Part shown: positions 19,055 through 24,588 of the stretch, in pieces
How positions within the stretch are numbered: the first letter of the stretch is position 1
Layout: each line of letters opens with the position of its first letter
Source: an uncultured delta proteobacterium
GTDB taxonomy: Bacteria; Desulfobacterota; BSN033; UBA1163
DNA: 64,000 nucleotides
Assembly: GCA_963827685.1 (NCBI GenBank)
Contig: CAWHBU010000006.1
Coordinates: forward strand, 448,001 to 512,000
Direction: 5' to 3'
Position numbers and translations under genes: made by a program
The notes under the pieces: model-generated
What the model saw: only the letters and a program-made list of their open reading frames with translations
What the model was told of the DNA's origin: nothing
The model's database searches: none

Positions 19055-19324
19055 TCATGCAGTCTTCTCTTCCATCAACTTCTTTGAAATCCCGGACCGT
19101 ATTAGAAGTTGACGAACGGTCGGGGTGGGCTGAGCTCCCTTTCTCAGCCACTGAATCGCCTTTTCTTCCTTGAACCGAACCTCCACTGGATTTTTCTTGG
19201 GATCATAGGTTCCCACCTGGTCAATAAATCTGCCGCCTCTGGAAAAACGACGATCCGAAACTACAATTCGGTAATAGGGGCTCTTCTTTCCACCAAATCT
19301 CATCAATCTCATCGATGCAGCCAT
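19055..19324 (-). CDS. rpsP: 30S ribosomal protein S16
   Basis: RLMRFGGKKSPYYRIVV, GTYDP, WLRKGAQPT. Confidence 0.96.
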   Translation of the reverse strand: MAASMRLMRFGGKKSPYYRIVVSDRRFSRGGRFIDQVGTYDPKKNPVEVRFKEEKAIQWLRKGAQPTPTVRQLLIRSGISKKLMEEKTA

Positions 19325-19384
19325 ATCGTTTTCTACCACCTCCTTCTGTCAAAGAATCGCAAAGGGCATACCCTATAGATCGTA

Positions 19385-19540
19385 AAATTCCAAATGCCAA
19401 TATCCCTGCCTACCGGCAGGCAGGCAAATCTCAAATAAGCTCAAAATACCAGACTAAAATGACCGAAACGATTCTGTTTGAAATTTAGAATTTGGGTCAT
19501 TGAAACTTGTTTGTCATTTGGTGCTTGGGATTTGGCGCTT
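19385..19540. repeat. Inverted heptamer-repeat element (TCCAAAT type) with inserted 20-bp palindrome
   Basis: aaattccaaatgccaa...caaatctcaaat ... atttggtgcttgggatttgg; insert CCTGCCTACCGGCAGGCAGG at 19405-19424. Confidence 0.75.
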
Positions 19541-19559
19541 CTCTTCTGCGTTATTCTAT

Positions 19560-20900
19560 TCACGAAAAGAAAGGCACTCGTCCTCTTCCGAATCCTTTTT
19601 CTCCCATCTTCGTAAATTGCTTCATCATCTTTCGAGCTTGGGCATATTGTTTAAGCAGTCGGTTGACATCTTGAACACTCGTCCCGCTTCCTCGAGCAAT
19701 CCTCAATCTCCGGCTTCCATTGACGATCTGATAATTGGCCCGCTCTTTAGGCGTCATGGAATTGACAATAGCTTCCACCCTCACCAATTCCTTCTCATCG
19801 AAATCGAGGCCCCCTATTCCTTTCATCTTTTTTGGAAGTCCTGGGATCATCCCCAAGATCGATTCCAATGATCCCATCTTTCGAACCTGTTGAATCTGGT
19901 CCCGAAAATCCTCCAAGGTAAAAGAATCTTTCCGAATCTTCTTCTCTAACTCCCTTGCCTTCTTCTCGTCGAACGCAGTTTCTGCCTTCTCGATCAGGGT
20001 GAGGACATCTCCCATCCCCAGAATTCTTGAAGCCATTCGATCGGGATGGAAAGTCTCCAAGGCATCTAACCTTTCTCCCACTCCGATAAATTTAATGGGT
20101 TTTTGTGTCACGGATCTAATTGAGAGGGCCGCTCCTCCCCGTGCATCCCCATCCATTTTGGTGAGGATGATTCCATCAATCCCCAGCCGGTCATTGAAGT
20201 TTTTTGCAATATTGACCGCATCCTGGCCGGTCATGGCATCGGCTACCAAGAGCACCTCACTGGGCTTGATCTGGGTTTTGATCTCCCGGAGTTCCAGCAT
20301 TAAAGCCTCATCAATATGAAGCCTCCCGGCAGTATCGATGAGCATCAAATCATAACCTCCCTTCAGGGCGAAGTCCTTTGCTTTTAAACAGATCTCCATT
20401 GGGGTTTGCGAAGCTTCGGGGCGGTAAAAATCAACTTTCAACTCCTCCCCTAATTTCTGCAATTGCTCGATCGCCGCGGGTCGGTAAACATCAGCGGGAA
20501 CAAGGTAAGGTCGCTTCTTTTTTCCCTGAAAATACCGCGCCAGTTTACCTGCGGTGGTTGTTTTCCCACAGCCGTGGAGACCTACCAGCATCATTGGAAC
20601 GGGAGGACTTCCCGAAAGATGAATCCTCTGCTCCTCACCGCCCATCAGGGAAATCATCTCTTCTTTTACAATCTTGATCAATTGTTGAGCAGGGGTGAGG
20701 CTGCCCATCACTTCCTGACCGACAGCCCTTCCCTCGACTTGCTGAATAAAATCCTTGACGACCTTGAAATTAACATCCGCCTCCAAGAGGGCAATCCTCA
20801 CTTCCTTTAAGGCTTCTTGGATATTCTGCTCCGTCAACTTTCCATGGCCTCTCAGTTTCTTAAAGATCGAATCTAATTTGGTTGAAAGATTTTCAAACAT
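19560..20900 (-). CDS. ffh: Signal recognition particle protein
   Basis: ALLEADVN, GL.G.GKTT, DTAGR, TKMDGDARGGAALS, SRRLRIARGSG. Confidence 0.97.
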   Translation of the reverse strand: MFENLSTKLDSIFKKLRGHGKLTEQNIQEALKEVRIALLEADVNFKVVKDFIQQVEGRAVGQEVMGSLTPAQQLIKIVKEEMISLMGGEEQRIHLSGSPPVPMMLVGLHGCGKTTTAGKLARYFQGKKKRPYLVPADVYRPAAIEQLQKLGEELKVDFYRPEASQTPMEICLKAKDFALKGGYDLMLIDTAGRLHIDEALMLELREIKTQIKPSEVLLVADAMTGQDAVNIAKNFNDRLGIDGIILTKMDGDARGGAALSIRSVTQKPIKFIGVGERLDALETFHPDRMASRILGMGDVLTLIEKAETAFDEKKARELEKKIRKDSFTLEDFRDQIQQVRKMGSLESILGMIPGLPKKMKGIGGLDFDEKELVRVEAIVNSMTPKERANYQIVNGSRRLRIARGSGTSVQDVNRLLKQYAQARKMMKQFTKMGEKGFGRGRVPFFS

Positions 20901-20979
20901 ACCTAAATCCAAATAGACTATAACCAATTTATTCTATTCGCTCTTCTCCAGGTTGTCAAATTCCCACGTGCTTTTGGAA

Positions 20980-21122: not shown

Positions 21123-21524
21123 TTACAGTCCCTTTATGATTTTCCATTCCTTTCCCTCTTTCTTGAAAAAGAGGACCTCTTTACCAGAATAGCGATTCTT
21201 CTTCATGCCTTTCTCTACTTCTAAATGAAATTGCTGGATGACGATTGCCGTTTCTCCATCGATTTGGATAGATCGGTCCCAACTGGAATAGGAAATCCGA
21301 TCGAAGGTTTTAAAATATCCTTCGATCCGTTTTTGAAGCCGGCTAAGGTCTTCCTCCTTATCTTGATAGGCCTTGGAGATGCAGGAGAGGTAAAGGGAGA
21401 GGTCTCTTCTCTGGAGGGCCTCTTGCCTTTGATTCAAGATTTGATAGATTTTTTCTTCTTCGGAGACCTGACAGGCTAAGAGGAAAAGAATAGGGAGCAG
21501 AAAGGAGAGGAAACTTCTTCTCAT
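21123..21524 (-). CDS. NTF2/SnoaL-like lipoprotein
   Basis: Lipobox LLAC; C-terminal FKKEGKEWKII typical of the NTF2 fold; overlaps the upstream stop. Confidence 0.7.
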   Translation of the reverse strand: MRRSFLSFLLPILFLLACQVSEEEKIYQILNQRQEALQRRDLSLYLSCISKAYQDKEEDLSRLQKRIEGYFKTFDRISYSSWDRSIQIDGETAIVIQQFHLEVEKGMKKNRYSGKEVLFFKKEGKEWKIIKGL

Positions 21525-23221
21525 TTCAGCTTTTCAATTTCTCCGGGCTGAATCTTCGCCTTTCCTCGTCCACTCGGCCCTCCTTTCACATCGACCCGGT
21601 TCTTATCGATATCAAAAATGATCTCATCTCCCGAGACGATATTCTCCCCTTCCGAAACTTTCGGGTCACCCGTCAAAACCACTTTTTGGTCAAGGTTGTA
21701 AAAAACGGCCTTCTGACAATTGGCGACTCGAAGACCCTGTTGGATCTTCACATTTCCCCCGGCAGTCACCCGATCAATCCCCTTGCCGTCTTCAATGATC
21801 ACTGCCTCTAAAGAATCAGCATAGATCACTATATCCCTCTGTCGAGCAATGACATTCCCTGTGAAGATGATCAAATTCTCCTTCCAGTAGGCCTCCACTT
21901 TGTCGGAGGTGATATCGATGGGTTGGCTCTTATCCACAAGCTTGGCGTCCTCAGTCTCCAGAGGAATCCCCTTCTTGACTTTTTCTTTCTCCTTGGAACG
22001 TATCGGGGAACTCGGTAATGCGGTGTTCCGTTTCTCCTCAACAGGCTTTACCTCTACCTTCGGTGCTGTTTTGGCAGAAGGGGGAGACGGAGGAATTCGA
22101 TCTTCCTTTACCGGTTCTCCAGTTGGAATGGGTTCGACCTTCTTGGCTTCTATGGAGCGAGGAATGGCTTGGCGTCTCTCCTCTTGAATGGGTTCGACCG
22201 CCACGGGTGCCACTGGCTTCCTGGATTCTTCTTTAGGAGGAATTGCCTTAACCGACTCGCTCGTGACAGGGAGGGAAGCCAATTGCTCCTGCTCCTTCCT
22301 CGTCTCAACCTTTTTCTCCTCCTTCAGAGAAACAGGCTGTTTCCCTTCCTCTTCGAATTTGACCAAGGCAACCCTATCGGGTTCTATCCCGGCACCTTCG
22401 TCTTTCTTCTTGGACTCTTTGGTTTTGGTCTTGCGAAGAGAGACTTTCTTTTCCGATAGACCTTTATCAACAATGACTCTGGCTTCTTGATAATAGGGGC
22501 TTTTGGGATATTCGGTGACAATCTTCCTAAAGGCCGCTTCAGCCTTCTCCCATCGTTCGAGTTCAAGATAACTCTTTCCTAAGAAGTAGAGAGTCATATC
22601 CTCATCGGGGTCTTTAGGAAATTTTTCTAATAACCCCTCAAAACGTGAAGCAGCGGCTTGAAATCTTCCTTGTTTGTAATAGAAATTTCCAACATAGAAT
22701 TCATGGTCAGCCATCCGTTTTTTACAGACACCAATTTTTTCCTTTGCCTTCTCGGTAAAGAGGCTGGGGGGATAATTGGCGATCAGATATTCGAAGCTGG
22801 AGAGGGCCTTCTTCGAGGGAGTCTGATCCCGATCAAGGGTGAACATCTGATTGAAATAGGACATCCCAATTTGATACTGAACATAAGGAATCTCTTCATG
22901 GCTTGGATGGATCTTCTTAAACTCCTCATAAGCTGCAATCGCCTCTACATATGCTTTCTGTAAGAAGTGACAATCGCCGACCTTCAGTTCTGCCCAAAGG
23001 GTATAGGGAGGACTATCGGGAAAACTTGACTTCAACTCTTCGAATTTCTTCATGGCCTCGATATAGTCTCTTTTATTGAATCGAGCCAATCCCTGCTTAT
23101 AAAGGATTTCAGGATCTCCTTCAATTTTCTTAATATCCTTCCCCTTCCCACCACATCCAAAAAGAAGGGAGAGGGCGATAGGCAACAAGAGCATCCATTT
23201 TAGAAATATTCTCTTTTTCAT
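21521..23221 (-). CDS. bamD: BamD-like outer-membrane assembly lipoprotein fused through a Pro/Lys/Glu-rich linker to an LptA/OstA domain
   Basis: Lipobox LFGC; AELKVGDCHF, EFKKIHP, DRDQT, ADHEFYVGNFYYK (BamD); C-terminal PIDITSD..FTGNV.ARQ..AGGNVKI.Q..VVLTGDP..SGDEI (LptA). Confidence 0.85.
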   Translation of the reverse strand: MKKRIFLKWMLLLPIALSLLFGCGGKGKDIKKIEGDPEILYKQGLARFNKRDYIEAMKKFEELKSSFPDSPPYTLWAELKVGDCHFLQKAYVEAIAAYEEFKKIHPSHEEIPYVQYQIGMSYFNQMFTLDRDQTPSKKALSSFEYLIANYPPSLFTEKAKEKIGVCKKRMADHEFYVGNFYYKQGRFQAAASRFEGLLEKFPKDPDEDMTLYFLGKSYLELERWEKAEAAFRKIVTEYPKSPYYQEARVIVDKGLSEKKVSLRKTKTKESKKKDEGAGIEPDRVALVKFEEEGKQPVSLKEEKKVETRKEQEQLASLPVTSESVKAIPPKEESRKPVAPVAVEPIQEERRQAIPRSIEAKKVEPIPTGEPVKEDRIPPSPPSAKTAPKVEVKPVEEKRNTALPSSPIRSKEKEKVKKGIPLETEDAKLVDKSQPIDITSDKVEAYWKENLIIFTGNVIARQRDIVIYADSLEAVIIEDGKGIDRVTAGGNVKIQQGLRVANCQKAVFYNLDQKVVLTGDPKVSEGENIVSGDEIIFDIDKNRVDVKGGPSGRGKAKIQPGEIEKLK

Positions 23222-23421
23222 ATGAAACGTTCCCAAAAGTTCCATTATTATGATAGGAAGCGCTTAGGATGTCAATACAAAAATCCCTTTCTCAGTGAAA
23301 TTCAAGGTAAGAGATGGTTTATCCAAAAGCATCTTTTATCTTGAATTTCAAATGGAAAGCCCTTAAGATGAAAAGAGATTTAAAAAATGCTTGCCCACCG
23401 CGAGGAGGAAGGGAGCGACGG

Positions 23422-24588
23422 ATGCGAATCGGCATGGCAAAAAGAATTGATCAAATCCCTCCTTATCTTTTCGCAGAGATAGATAAGAAGAAAGAGGACC
23501 TGAGGAGGAAGGGAGTAGATCTCATTGACCTGGGAATTGGAGATCCGGACCTCCCCACCCCCAAACCGATTATTGAACGATTAAAAAAAGCGGCGGAAAA
23601 TTCCAAAAACCACCGGTACCCCTCCTACGAAGGGATGATTGAATTCAGAACGGCGGTGGCCCAATGGTATGAAAGGAGGTTTGGCGTCAAGCTTGATCCG
23701 GGAACAGAGGTGCTCTCTCTCATCGGTTCGAAGGAAGGCATCGCCCATATCCCTCTTGCCTTTGTCAACCCGGGAGATTATGTTCTGGTTCCTACTCCCG
23801 GCTATCCTGTTTATCGTGTCTCGACCCTTTTCGCCGGGGGCGCCCCTTATTTCTTACCGCTTCGTGAAGAGAATGGATTTCTACCGAACCTTTCTGAAAT
23901 CCCTGAGAAGGTAGCCAAAAAAGCAAAACTCCTTTTCATCAACTATCCCAATAATCCCACATCCGCCATCGCTGAGAAACCTTTCTTTGAAGAGGTCGTG
24001 ACCTTCGCCCAGCACTACCAGATCATCGTTTGCCATGATGCAGCCTATTCAGAAATCGCTTTCGATGGATACCAACCTCTCAGTTTTTTGGAAGTGAAGG
24101 GGGCCAAGGAGGTGGGAGTCGAATTTCACAGCCTCTCAAAAACCTTTAATATGACGGGATGGAGAATCGGATTCGCGGTGGGGCATTCTGAAATACTCGC
24201 CGGATTGGGAAGGGTGAAGACCAATATCGATTCCGGTGTTTTCCAAGCGATCCAGGAAGCCGGAGCAGAAGCCCTCAATCACCTTGACACTCCGCTTCCG
24301 GAAATCATTAACATTTATGAGAGACGAAGAGATGTGATGGTAAGGGGTCTTCAAGAGATTGGGTTAGAAGTACATCGTCCCAAGGCCACCTTCTATCTCT
24401 GGATTCGAGTACCAAGGGGATATACCTCCGCTCAATTCGCTACGCTCTTGATCGAGCAAGGGGGAATCGTCGCTACCCCAGGAAACGGTTTTGGAGAGGG
24501 AGGAGAAGGCTACATCCGAATGGCTCTTACGGTCGATGAAAAAAGGTTGAAAGAAGCGATCGAAAGACTGAAACGAATCAAATTCTGA
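23422..24588 (+). CDS. dapL: LL-diaminopimelate aminotransferase
   Basis: [51 protein letters not shown]. Confidence 0.88.

Follow-up and report, generated by a model that had tools for sequence, protein, structure and literature searches.

A question about Gram-negatives is how they coordinate the insertion of proteins by BAM and of LPS by Lpt as a single outer membrane grows; both machineries are antibiotic targets. In the window analysed here, a stretch of 64,000 nucleotides from an uncultured delta-proteobacterium, one gene was originally predicted to encode a single lipoprotein that joins BamD, an essential lipoprotein partner of BamA, to LptA. Is this fusion a genuine protein, and what would an LptA module do on BamD?

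The fusion gene and its integrity

The gene occupies 21521..23221 on the reverse strand and encodes a lipoprotein of 566 residues and ~60 kDa, followed by a stop codon. Open reading frame analysis found an unbroken frame over 21521..23245 (574 aa, reverse strand) when an alternative upstream start is included. The ATG at 23221 is favored because a promoter-like sequence, TTGACA-17-CATAAT (23275..23247, reverse strand), is located just upstream of it and overlaps the alternative ATG at 23245. This sigma-70-like candidate has 11 of 12 consensus matches and is a consensus match only. The predicted signal peptide with its lipobox (residues 1–23; 23153..23221, reverse strand) contains MKKRIFLKWMLLLPIALSLLFG directly followed by the lipobox cysteine of a predicted outer-membrane lipoprotein (LLFG↓C). 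This cysteine, Cys23, is the predicted lipidated residue and is invariant across fusion alignments of 21 and of 52 sequences. The gene lies between an aminotransferase gene and ffh, outside the lptC-lptA-lptB slot.

The window comes from a metagenome-type assembly whose contamination is 7.98%, and one minority contig in one run carries a 1-nt deletion. Both points would fit an artefact, whether by misassembly, by read-through from one gene into another, or by pseudogene decay. However, the ORF can be pieced together from contigs of four studies, which bridge both domain boundaries without frame breaks; these Logan contigs are about 150–500 nt long, none covers the whole ORF, and the continuity is that of overlapping pieces. 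The same architecture was observed on >100 independent contigs, and both domains are present in 120 of 120 homologues among the matches listed. An intact fusion occurs in 48 of the 55 genomes of the window's family, and a short BamD was found in none of the 55. Both domains are also strongly conserved. The mean column identity among 124 f1-type sequences is 0.87 for BamD and 0.90 for LptA, with 0.67 for the linker. The two domains are intact, conserved, and under selection; the linker is not conserved. Judged by these conservation data, the artefact is already refuted. The original prediction had allowed for a misassembly or for a fusion unique to this contig; no sign of the former was detected, and the latter is not the case. 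It had also allowed for a C-terminal domain unlike OstA/LptA, and this domain does match LptA.

A search for named loci found 21 that carry the fusion; it reached the window's own clade only, and this number does not show the full taxonomic range. Among the sampled genomes of the phylum, 13 of 73 contain the fusion, and they are spread over 7 families. Whole families of sediment bacteria have the fusion as a fixed trait, and it is not a peculiarity of this contig. No published description of it was found in a literature search; the original prediction likewise knew of none. Database entries call it 'BamD' or 'LptA' depending on the pipeline, which exposes an annotation problem of one protein under two names.

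The BamD domain

The BamD TPR domain (residues 33–258; 22448..23125, reverse strand) was identified by TIGR03302, AlphaFold2, Foldseek, and phmmer. The N-terminal half scores 222 bits against TIGR03302 (cut-off 81.4) over residues 10–244, covering model positions 4–239 of 239, and Pfam YfiO (PF13525) gives 137.9 bits over residues 36–223. In the AlphaFold2 model, residues 33–258 are helical with pLDDT values of 90–98. Foldseek matched this half to 5d0o_D (TMt 0.90, rmsd 1.9 Å) and 3qky (E 1.7e-12), and its five-TPR helical fold superposes on solved BamD in BAM complexes. A phmmer comparison with solved BamD gave an E value of 3.9e-19. Arg193 of the fusion is invariant, and N. gonorrhoeae BamD has an Arg at the aligned position. 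The fusion is the sole full BamD of the genome, with the next TIGR03302 matches (66.6 and 62.1 bits) under the cut-off, and the same genome has two BamA paralogues.

The fusion shares with BamD (YfiO), as represented by the E. coli, Neisseria, and Rhodothermus structures, the lipobox, the five-TPR all-helical domain, and a score above the family cut-off. However, it has about 310 additional residues, which form the disordered linker and the LptA jellyroll. Known BamDs are about 245 residues long, and that of alpha-proteobacteria is reported to have an extension of only 60 residues (PMC3359395).

The LptA-type jellyroll is an extra LptA paralogue

Residues 431–556 (21554..21931, reverse strand) form an LptA-type beta-jellyroll, as indicated by TIGR03002, PDB sequence matches, and Foldseek. 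The TIGR03002 score is 81.1 bits (cut-off 71.7) over residues 428–559, covering model positions 3–141 of 142, and Pfam LptD_N (PF03968) gives 64 bits over residues 437–541. AlphaFold2 modeled residues 431–556 as 12 strands with pLDDT values of 78–91. All PDB sequence matches (9/9) are LptA/LptH, and the alignment covers the whole crystallised jellyroll. Foldseek matched the module to 2r1a_C (TMt 0.86) and 4uu4 (TMt 0.82). A profile of the fused modules gives 130–157 bits with free LptAs and 19–29 bits with LptD N-termini. In the module phylogeny, the fused modules group with LptAs in a single clade (support 100/100), and the window's clade has no long branch. The base of this clade lacks resolution in the 140-residue module tree, which is compatible with one or several fusion origins. 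A short C-terminal tail (residues 557–566 and the stop codon; 21521..21553, reverse strand) follows the jellyroll; it is conserved in the alignment, with a mean top-residue frequency of 0.85 in 124 sequences, and its pLDDT is low.

The same genome contains the canonical locus kdsD-lptC-lptA-lptB-rpoN, and the stand-alone lptA that the original prediction had suggested looking for is present there. The free LptA (189 aa) scores 90.6 bits on TIGR03002 and is 43% identical to the fused jellyroll. Canonical lptC-lptA-lptB and, beside it, LptD and LptE are retained, which makes the module on BamD an additional LptA paralogue. Genomes of the window's family keep a free LptA, and their LptC is a normal one of 212 aa. 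The module has the same fold as LptA (YhbN)/LptH, which forms the LPS bridge as a soluble protein of the periplasm, and exceeds the equivalog cut-off. However, it does not occur as a free soluble protein, nor does it occupy the slot between lptC and lptB: its N-terminal end is covalently tied to an outer-membrane lipoprotein, and it is encoded outside the lptC-lptA-lptB operon as a second copy beside canonical LptA.

A different arrangement was observed in another family of the phylum (f4). No free LptA was found in its 51 genomes; of the two LptA modules, one forms a fusion with LptC, encoded in the lptC-lptB operon, and the second is the one on BamD. The LptC-LptA fusion likewise places an LptA-type jellyroll on a membrane-anchored partner. 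Unlike the BamD fusion, it has an inner-membrane anchor through LptC and is an lpt operon gene; it probably derives from canonical lptA. In one genome (G299), the BamD-fused module was considered as the only LptA, and this assignment was dropped because LptC there has an LptA-like C-terminal half.

The linker

The two domains are connected by a K/E/P-rich linker (residues 259–430; 21932..22447, reverse strand), which is predicted to be disordered from its composition and from AlphaFold2 pLDDT values below 50. It is 172–174 aa long and contains 17% K, 17% E, and 12% P. The linker length varies from 26 to 326 aa among 141 fusions, and an in-frame 78-nt length variant was found in the linker of a relative. 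A conserved island, ..alvKFEEEGkqPvsLk.., lies at residues ~284–300 (22322..22372, reverse strand) in the alignment, with a mean top-residue frequency of 0.82 vs 0.66–0.67 in the linker on either side. KFEEEG is at least 90% identical among the 124 f1-type sequences; it is the only conserved linker element and is restricted to the f1 family.

The BamD-like TPR region, the Pro/Lys/Glu-rich linker of about 180 aa, and the complete LptA/OstA jellyroll, as well as the uninterrupted frame with a lipobox, had all been proposed from the letters alone. They are confirmed by the profile and structure matches, and the proposed boundaries agree with the AlphaFold2 limits (nt 23125–22448, 22447–21932, and 21931–21554).

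A long, exposed, and presumably disordered linker could be cut after export, so that a second LptA is set free from an otherwise normal BamD; the fusion would then only ensure co-expression. Such cutting would also provide the free LptA missing in f4. However, no conserved cleavage motif is evident in the linker, some linkers are only 26–40 aa long, and KFEEEG does not extend beyond one family. Processing of periplasmic polyproteins in this way is also unusual. We therefore regard this processing as very unlikely.

Possible coupling of BAM and Lpt

Our best reading, to which we assign a probability of about one half, is that the fusion links BAM to Lpt as a docking or bridge unit of the Lpt pathway, tethered to the outer membrane. 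The original prediction had offered three roles, namely holding LptA at BAM, capping the jellyroll of nascent LptD, and co-localising LPS and OMP insertion; the evidence here does not discriminate between them. The N-terminal half would do the usual BamD work in BAM. The tethered jellyroll would dock through LptA-like beta-edge pairing at the outer-membrane end of the LPS bridge, where its partner may be the N-terminal jellyroll of LptD and/or free LptA. The tether would keep LPS delivery and the LptD translocon beside BAM. It would thereby ease the transfer of newly folded LptD to a bridge and bring the insertion of LPS and OMP to one place. The arrangement in f4 counts for such a bridge unit, since it shows that tethered LptA modules can be the whole LptA set. 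Extra modules on BamD are plausible because BAM of delta-proteobacteria is described as having no BamB, BamC, or BamE (PMC3359395).

Several observations argue against the bridge unit. Because the window's family keeps free LptA and normal LptC, the fused module is, on paper, not needed for a bridge. Unfused BamD occurs in the sister families (7 of 8 genomes in f2 and 5 of 5 in f3), and the module is therefore dispensable in close relatives. In f4, the LptC-LptA fusion alone could reach LptD. The geometry also has to be considered. The tether attaches at the N-terminal edge of the jellyroll, and in the canonical bridge, this edge of LptA faces the inner membrane; therefore, the geometry is constrained for the short-linker variants.

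In a stronger version, the LPS bridge of these lineages would be hard-wired to BAM: the tethered jellyroll would be a working bridge unit proximal to the outer membrane, LPS would reach LptD only beside BAM, and OMP and LPS insertion would be mechanically coupled. The periplasmic bridge of f4 would then consist of two membrane-anchored halves that meet in mid-periplasm, LptC-LptA on the inner side and BamD-LptA on the outer side. By Rosetta-stone logic, a transient contact between BamD and LptA, or between BAM and Lpt, may then exist in model Gram-negatives. Taken jointly, these three propositions are tentative and rather doubtful.

Alternatively, the module could be a dedicated LptD-assembly chaperone that acts transiently at BAM. 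It would cap the N-terminal jellyroll edge of nascent LptD, and then release LptD to free LptA with no flow of LPS. LptD is a slow-folding BAM substrate, and the capping would last until the barrel and LptE are assembled. This chaperone is consistent with reports that immature LptD sits on BAM alongside accessory factors, among them BepA and LptM (PMC8423444; 10.1101/2023.01.02.522452). The retention of the full free Lpt set fits an auxiliary role, and a local holdase could work on a flexible tether whatever its length. However, the LptA equivalog score of the module is near that of free LptA (81.1 vs 90.6 bits), suggesting that full LptA constraints are retained beyond one edge, and f4 has no free LptA to take over. 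On balance, this chaperone function is unlikely.

A chaperone for BAM substrates that is independent of LPS and compensates for the absent BamB, BamC, and BamE is quite improbable. In this case, unfolded OMP strands or the acyl chains of lipoproteins would sit in the hydrophobic groove or at the open edges of the module. The absence of these subunits in delta-proteobacteria (PMC3359395), the addition of own BAM subunits in other lineages (PDB 9n2d and 9hiv), and the Lpt-like parts reported in lipoprotein export elsewhere (10.1101/2022.12.21.521298 and 10.64898/2026.10.02.756314) would fit it. However, the module is close to true LptA, as indicated by the fully supported shared clade and by the lack of a long branch. 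Moreover, 18 of 40 long BamD representatives have other extensions without an OstA domain, and the extension as such is therefore not bound to the jellyroll fold.

If the bridge-unit reading is followed, the tethered jellyroll is predicted to bind LptA or the N-terminal domain of LptD, LPS should be present in its groove, and BAM and LptDE should be in proximity. That whole families have fixed a natural covalent link between BamD and an LptA module hints strongly, on comparative-genomic grounds, at a physical contact between BAM and Lpt. The natural fusion further offers a simple template for experiments with tethered LptA in model organisms.

Comparison with other BAM-associated modules

BepA is a protease that contains TPRs, and LptM is a small lipoprotein; neither has an Lpt jellyroll, and their active parts are not homologous to the fusion. 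In the literature on LptD maturation in E. coli, both are likewise described as BAM-located proteins that act on the LPS translocon. The extended BAM of Bacteroidota (BamF/G etc.; PDB 9n2d and 9hiv) is a precedent for lineage-own modules on BamA-BamD. However, its additions are separate subunits, whereas here an Lpt module is fused to BamD.

The downstream NTF2-like lipoprotein

The next gene (21123..21524, reverse strand) encodes an NTF2-like (DUF4440) lipoprotein of 133 aa with the lipobox LLA↓C, as identified by Pfam and AlphaFold2. Its start overlaps the stop codon of the fusion gene in an ATGA (21521..21524, reverse strand). The protein scores 35 bits with DUF4440 (cut-off 25.2) and 24 bits with SnoaL_3. 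AlphaFold2 (pLDDT 86.4) and Foldseek support an NTF2-like alpha+beta cone fold; all Foldseek matches are generic NTF2-like folds that give no functional lead. A search of the genome with PF24125 (Cds6_C) gave no match, and its control likewise matched nowhere. This lipoprotein was considered as a replacement of LptE and rejected, as the genome has LptE. The translational coupling of the two genes, part of the original prediction, holds at this locus. However, of 21 related fused loci, only 6 have an NTF2 gene directly after the fusion; therefore, the coupling is a subclade trait and not a general one. In some lineages, NTF2-like domains have been added to the fusion itself, and the NTF2 repeats at the C-terminus of these triple fusions are homologues of the 133-aa protein.

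Domain architecture of the fusion

The uninterrupted frame at window positions 21521..23245 (minus strand) encodes 574 aa. A promoter-like TTGACA-17-CATAAT element with 11 of 12 consensus matches sits at 23275..23247 (−); therefore, the ATG at 23221 is the likelier start. Translation from this codon gives a protein of 566 aa (N-terminus MKKRIFLK...) with the lipobox LLFG|C. Both family models scored above their cut-offs: the BamD model TIGR03302 of NCBIfam reached 222 bits (cut-off 81.4), and the LptA equivalog model TIGR03002 reached 81.1 bits (cut-off 71.7) over positions 3-141 of 142. Pfam matched YfiO/BamD at residues 36-223 (137.9 bits) and LptD_N at residues 437-541 (64 bits). The original prediction of a single BamD-LptA lipoprotein frame was thus borne out. 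The gene lies between a divergent aminotransferase gene upstream (23314-24588, +) and ffh and rpsP downstream (19055-20927, −), and this order is kept in most of 21 related fused loci.

An AlphaFold2 model was calculated from a 52-row alignment, drawn from a set of 141 fused sequences (mean pLDDT 71.3, pTM 0.48). Residues 33-258 form a helical BamD domain (pLDDT 90-98), residues 259-430 a linker (pLDDT <50), and residues 431-556 a 12-stranded domain (pLDDT 78-91). In Foldseek searches of the PDB, the first domain matched BamD (3qky, E 1.7e-12; 5d0o_D, TMt 0.90, rmsd 1.9 Å) and the second matched LptH/LptA (4uu4, TMt 0.82; 2r1a_C, TMt 0.86, rmsd 2.2 Å). Sequence searches of the PDB agreed. The N-terminal half matched BamD of Neisseria (E 3.9e-19) and E. 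coli (E about 1e-16), and all nine matches of the C-terminal 146 residues were LptA or LptH, with nearly the whole crystallised chain aligned. The C-terminal domain is therefore of the LptA/OstA type, as had been proposed.

Both domains were detected in all 141 fusions, separated by linkers of 26-326 aa (median 177) rich in K, E, and P; that of the window protein contains 17% K, 17% E, and 12% P, with a net charge of +7. The mean top-residue frequency in 124 sequences of the type found in the window's own family was 0.87 for BamD, 0.90 for LptA, and 0.66-0.67 for the linker. Judged from these alignments, the conservation pattern is that of two functional domains on a flexible tether. Within the variable linker of this type, a conserved island, ..alvKFEEEGkqPvsLk.. 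(0.82; window 22322-22372, −), may be a short binding motif. The fusion could also be read as a polyprotein that is cleaved into its two conserved halves, but we regard this as very improbable.

Evidence that the fusion is genuine

PF13525 and PF03968 were both present in all 120 homologues listed (of 624 matches), on many contigs; these are named 'BamD' by JGI and 'LptA' by NCBI. The full-length fusion was found in 21 of 30 loci from named genome records, titled as Syntrophaceae, Thermodesulfobacteriota, delta proteobacterium, or Syntrophorhabdus MAGs. Metagenomes of wetland, peat, and sediment from 12 studies contain DNA nearly identical to the fusion. Four of these studies supplied short contigs that tile the frame and bridge both domain boundaries, a check across the linker that had been suggested; the only change that breaks the frame is a 1-nt deletion in a single minority contig. 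In sequencing run X8, one contig skips 26 codons of the linker (78 nt, in frame; window 22147-22226), an instance of natural variation in linker length between close relatives. An assembly artefact was rejected because the same architecture recurs on many contigs and is bridged in four studies.

No description of a BamD-LptA architecture was found in literature listings and abstracts, and a brief mention elsewhere is possible. The consulted part of PMC3359395 assigns only BamA and BamD to delta-proteobacteria and does not mention LptA or OstA; BamD is not mentioned in the consulted part of 10.64898/2026.10.02.756314. The protein joins two known families in a genuine and conserved fusion that has so far gone undescribed.

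Lpt and BAM components of the genome

The assembly (5.23 Mb, 94.5% complete, 8% contamination) contains the canonical locus kdsD-lptC(212 aa)-lptA(189 aa)-lptB-rpoN-hpf-ptsN, which includes the stand-alone lptA for which a search had been suggested (TIGR03002, 90.6 bits). LptD and LptE are also encoded. The fused jellyroll is therefore an additional LptA paralogue, with 43% identity to the free copy. The fusion is the sole full BamD of the genome; the next TIGR03302 matches (66.6 and 62.1 bits) are under the cut-off, and a 1017-aa multi-TPR frame exceeds it solely via summed partial repeats. Two BamA paralogues lie outside the window (G000:C6:524815-526980 and G000:C6:259183-261348, both +; 660 and 503+ bits). 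In the second, a middle piece occupies its own 147-aa frame, perhaps through a frameshift or an assembly error.

Against a profile of the fused modules, free LptAs scored 130-157 bits and LptD N-termini 19-29 bits. A maximum-likelihood tree was calculated from 46 rows (28 fused modules, 10 LptAs, and 8 LptD-N domains), omitting the duplicate locus L013 and weak matches fitting none of the three classes. The LptD-N domains formed one clade (100/100), and the fused modules and LptAs another (100/100), whose base lacks resolution. The window's fused clade (99/99) excludes the genome's own LptA. The tree would be compatible with a single origin of the fusion, without lending it support.

The N-terminal half would be expected to work as BamD. 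The C-terminal TPRs of BamD are close to POTRA5 and the membrane, and a disordered chain of 170 residues spans on the order of 10 nm. In LptA, the N-terminal edge faces LptC and the C-terminal edge faces LptD. Most likely, the tethered jellyroll would use this edge pairing to dock onto the Lpt bridge at its outer-membrane end, and BAM and Lpt would thereby be coupled spatially. The jellyroll might instead serve as a transient cap for nascent LptD, which seems unlikely, or as an LPS-independent chaperone, which we consider less likely still. As a comparative-genomic pointer to BAM-Lpt coupling, the fusion has real value.

Distribution across the phylum

The fusion is not unique to this contig. 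In a survey of 68 genomes of the class, an intact single-frame fusion was found in 48 of 55 genomes of the window's own family (f1); 21 of them align over the full length, and 27 carry both halves within one frame of 474-638 aa (one with a stop flagged within the match). Three of the remaining genomes are fragmentary and four have no BamD match. None of the 55 has a short BamD, and nearly all have a separate LptA of 181-246 aa. In the two sister families, BamD is 262-298 aa long (7/8 genomes) or lacks the LptA half (5/5). Among 73 genomes of the phylum, each at least 90% complete, BamD and LptA matched in one frame in 12, from six families (f1, f4, f13, f17, f26, and f27); a more divergent version in G013 (family f15) brings the total to 13.

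An exhaustive search covered 1.84 billion cluster representatives, and 40 matches longer than 380 aa among the 150 listed were scanned with Pfam. YfiO and LptD_N occurred together in 22 and were absent as a pair from 18. Ten long BamD representatives of 595-768 aa (P0187, P0189, P0193, P0206, P0214, P0248, P0249, P0261, P0263, and P0264) had no OstA domain or further Pfam match (E ≤ 1e-6) beyond BamD, and on their sequences these are other C-terminal BamD extensions. Three fused clusters in a protein atlas (108, 92, and 55 members; commonest taxon Thermodesulfobacteriota) serve as a lead only.

In family f4, no free LptA was detected by the LptA model in 51 genomes of 15 genera. The best match lay within a 417-598-aa frame in 48 genomes and a second within a 303-332-aa frame in 38; the sole short frames (198 and 165 aa) are at contig edges. 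All five long frames examined combine BamD (183-199 bits) and LptA (69.5-82.8 bits), as do all 120 listed relatives of this type, labelled Syntrophorhabdaceae, Syntrophorhabdus, Syntrophus, or Syntrophobacterales MAGs. The three Lpt loci examined, one in a single-contig 5.5-Mb genome, lack a separate lptA and read kdsD - LptC-LptA fusion - lptB - rpoN. This fusion of 303-305 aa (L084:2699-3616, L086:2321-3232, and L080:1459-2376; −) joins LptC (residues ~9-178) to an LptA-like part (~186-299) directly upstream of lptB, which it overlaps. All LptA-type modules detected in f4 are therefore membrane-tethered. Even so, the module on BamD counts as the additional one, because LptC-LptA alone could reach LptD.

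Proteins of 407-584 aa, with LptA as their C-terminal domain, occupy the lptC-lptA-lptB slot in six genomes from six further families (L090:997-2226, L091:987-2210, L092:1031-2341, and L094:1035-2276, −; L093:1706-2977 and L095:963-2717, +). Their N-terminal parts (260-455 aa) gave weak hints only (TolB_N, LpoB, FlgT_M, and SH3_3). By sequence, these proteins are another route of LptA extension in the phylum.

NTF2-like partner

The predicted coupling to an NTF2-like lipoprotein holds in the window, where the fusion stop overlaps the start of the NTF2 gene (21123..21524, −) as ATGA, but just 6 of the 21 fused loci have the NTF2 gene behind the fusion; ffh comes next in most of the rest, within ~60-170 nt. 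The product is a 133-aa lipoprotein (LLA|C) with a generic NTF2-like fold that matches DUF4440 and SnoaL_3. Its family is a tight clade with 698 matches, and the 120 listed are all at least 83% identical. Four distant cluster representatives of 855-1014 aa (P0132, P0135, P0142, and P0144) carry one or two NTF2-like domains (Cds6_C, DUF4440) behind the LptA module, and these repeats align with the window's NTF2 protein over its full length (pairwise E 1e-5 to 8e-5). The domains of these triple fusions are set apart by long Pro/Ala/Ser-rich linkers. The adjacency and the repeats therefore establish a recurrent link between the modules. Frames of 832-885 aa in genomes G225, G024, and G065 are triple fusions of the same make-up (BamD, LptA module, and Cds6_C/DUF4440 domains, one or two of them), with linkers of the same kind. 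In a Hydrogenedentota-labelled MAG (locus L044), an NTF2-like match (966-1313, E 4.5e-5) lies just upstream of a BamD match (1739-2092), which hints at an NTF2-BamD neighbourhood recurring outside the phylum.
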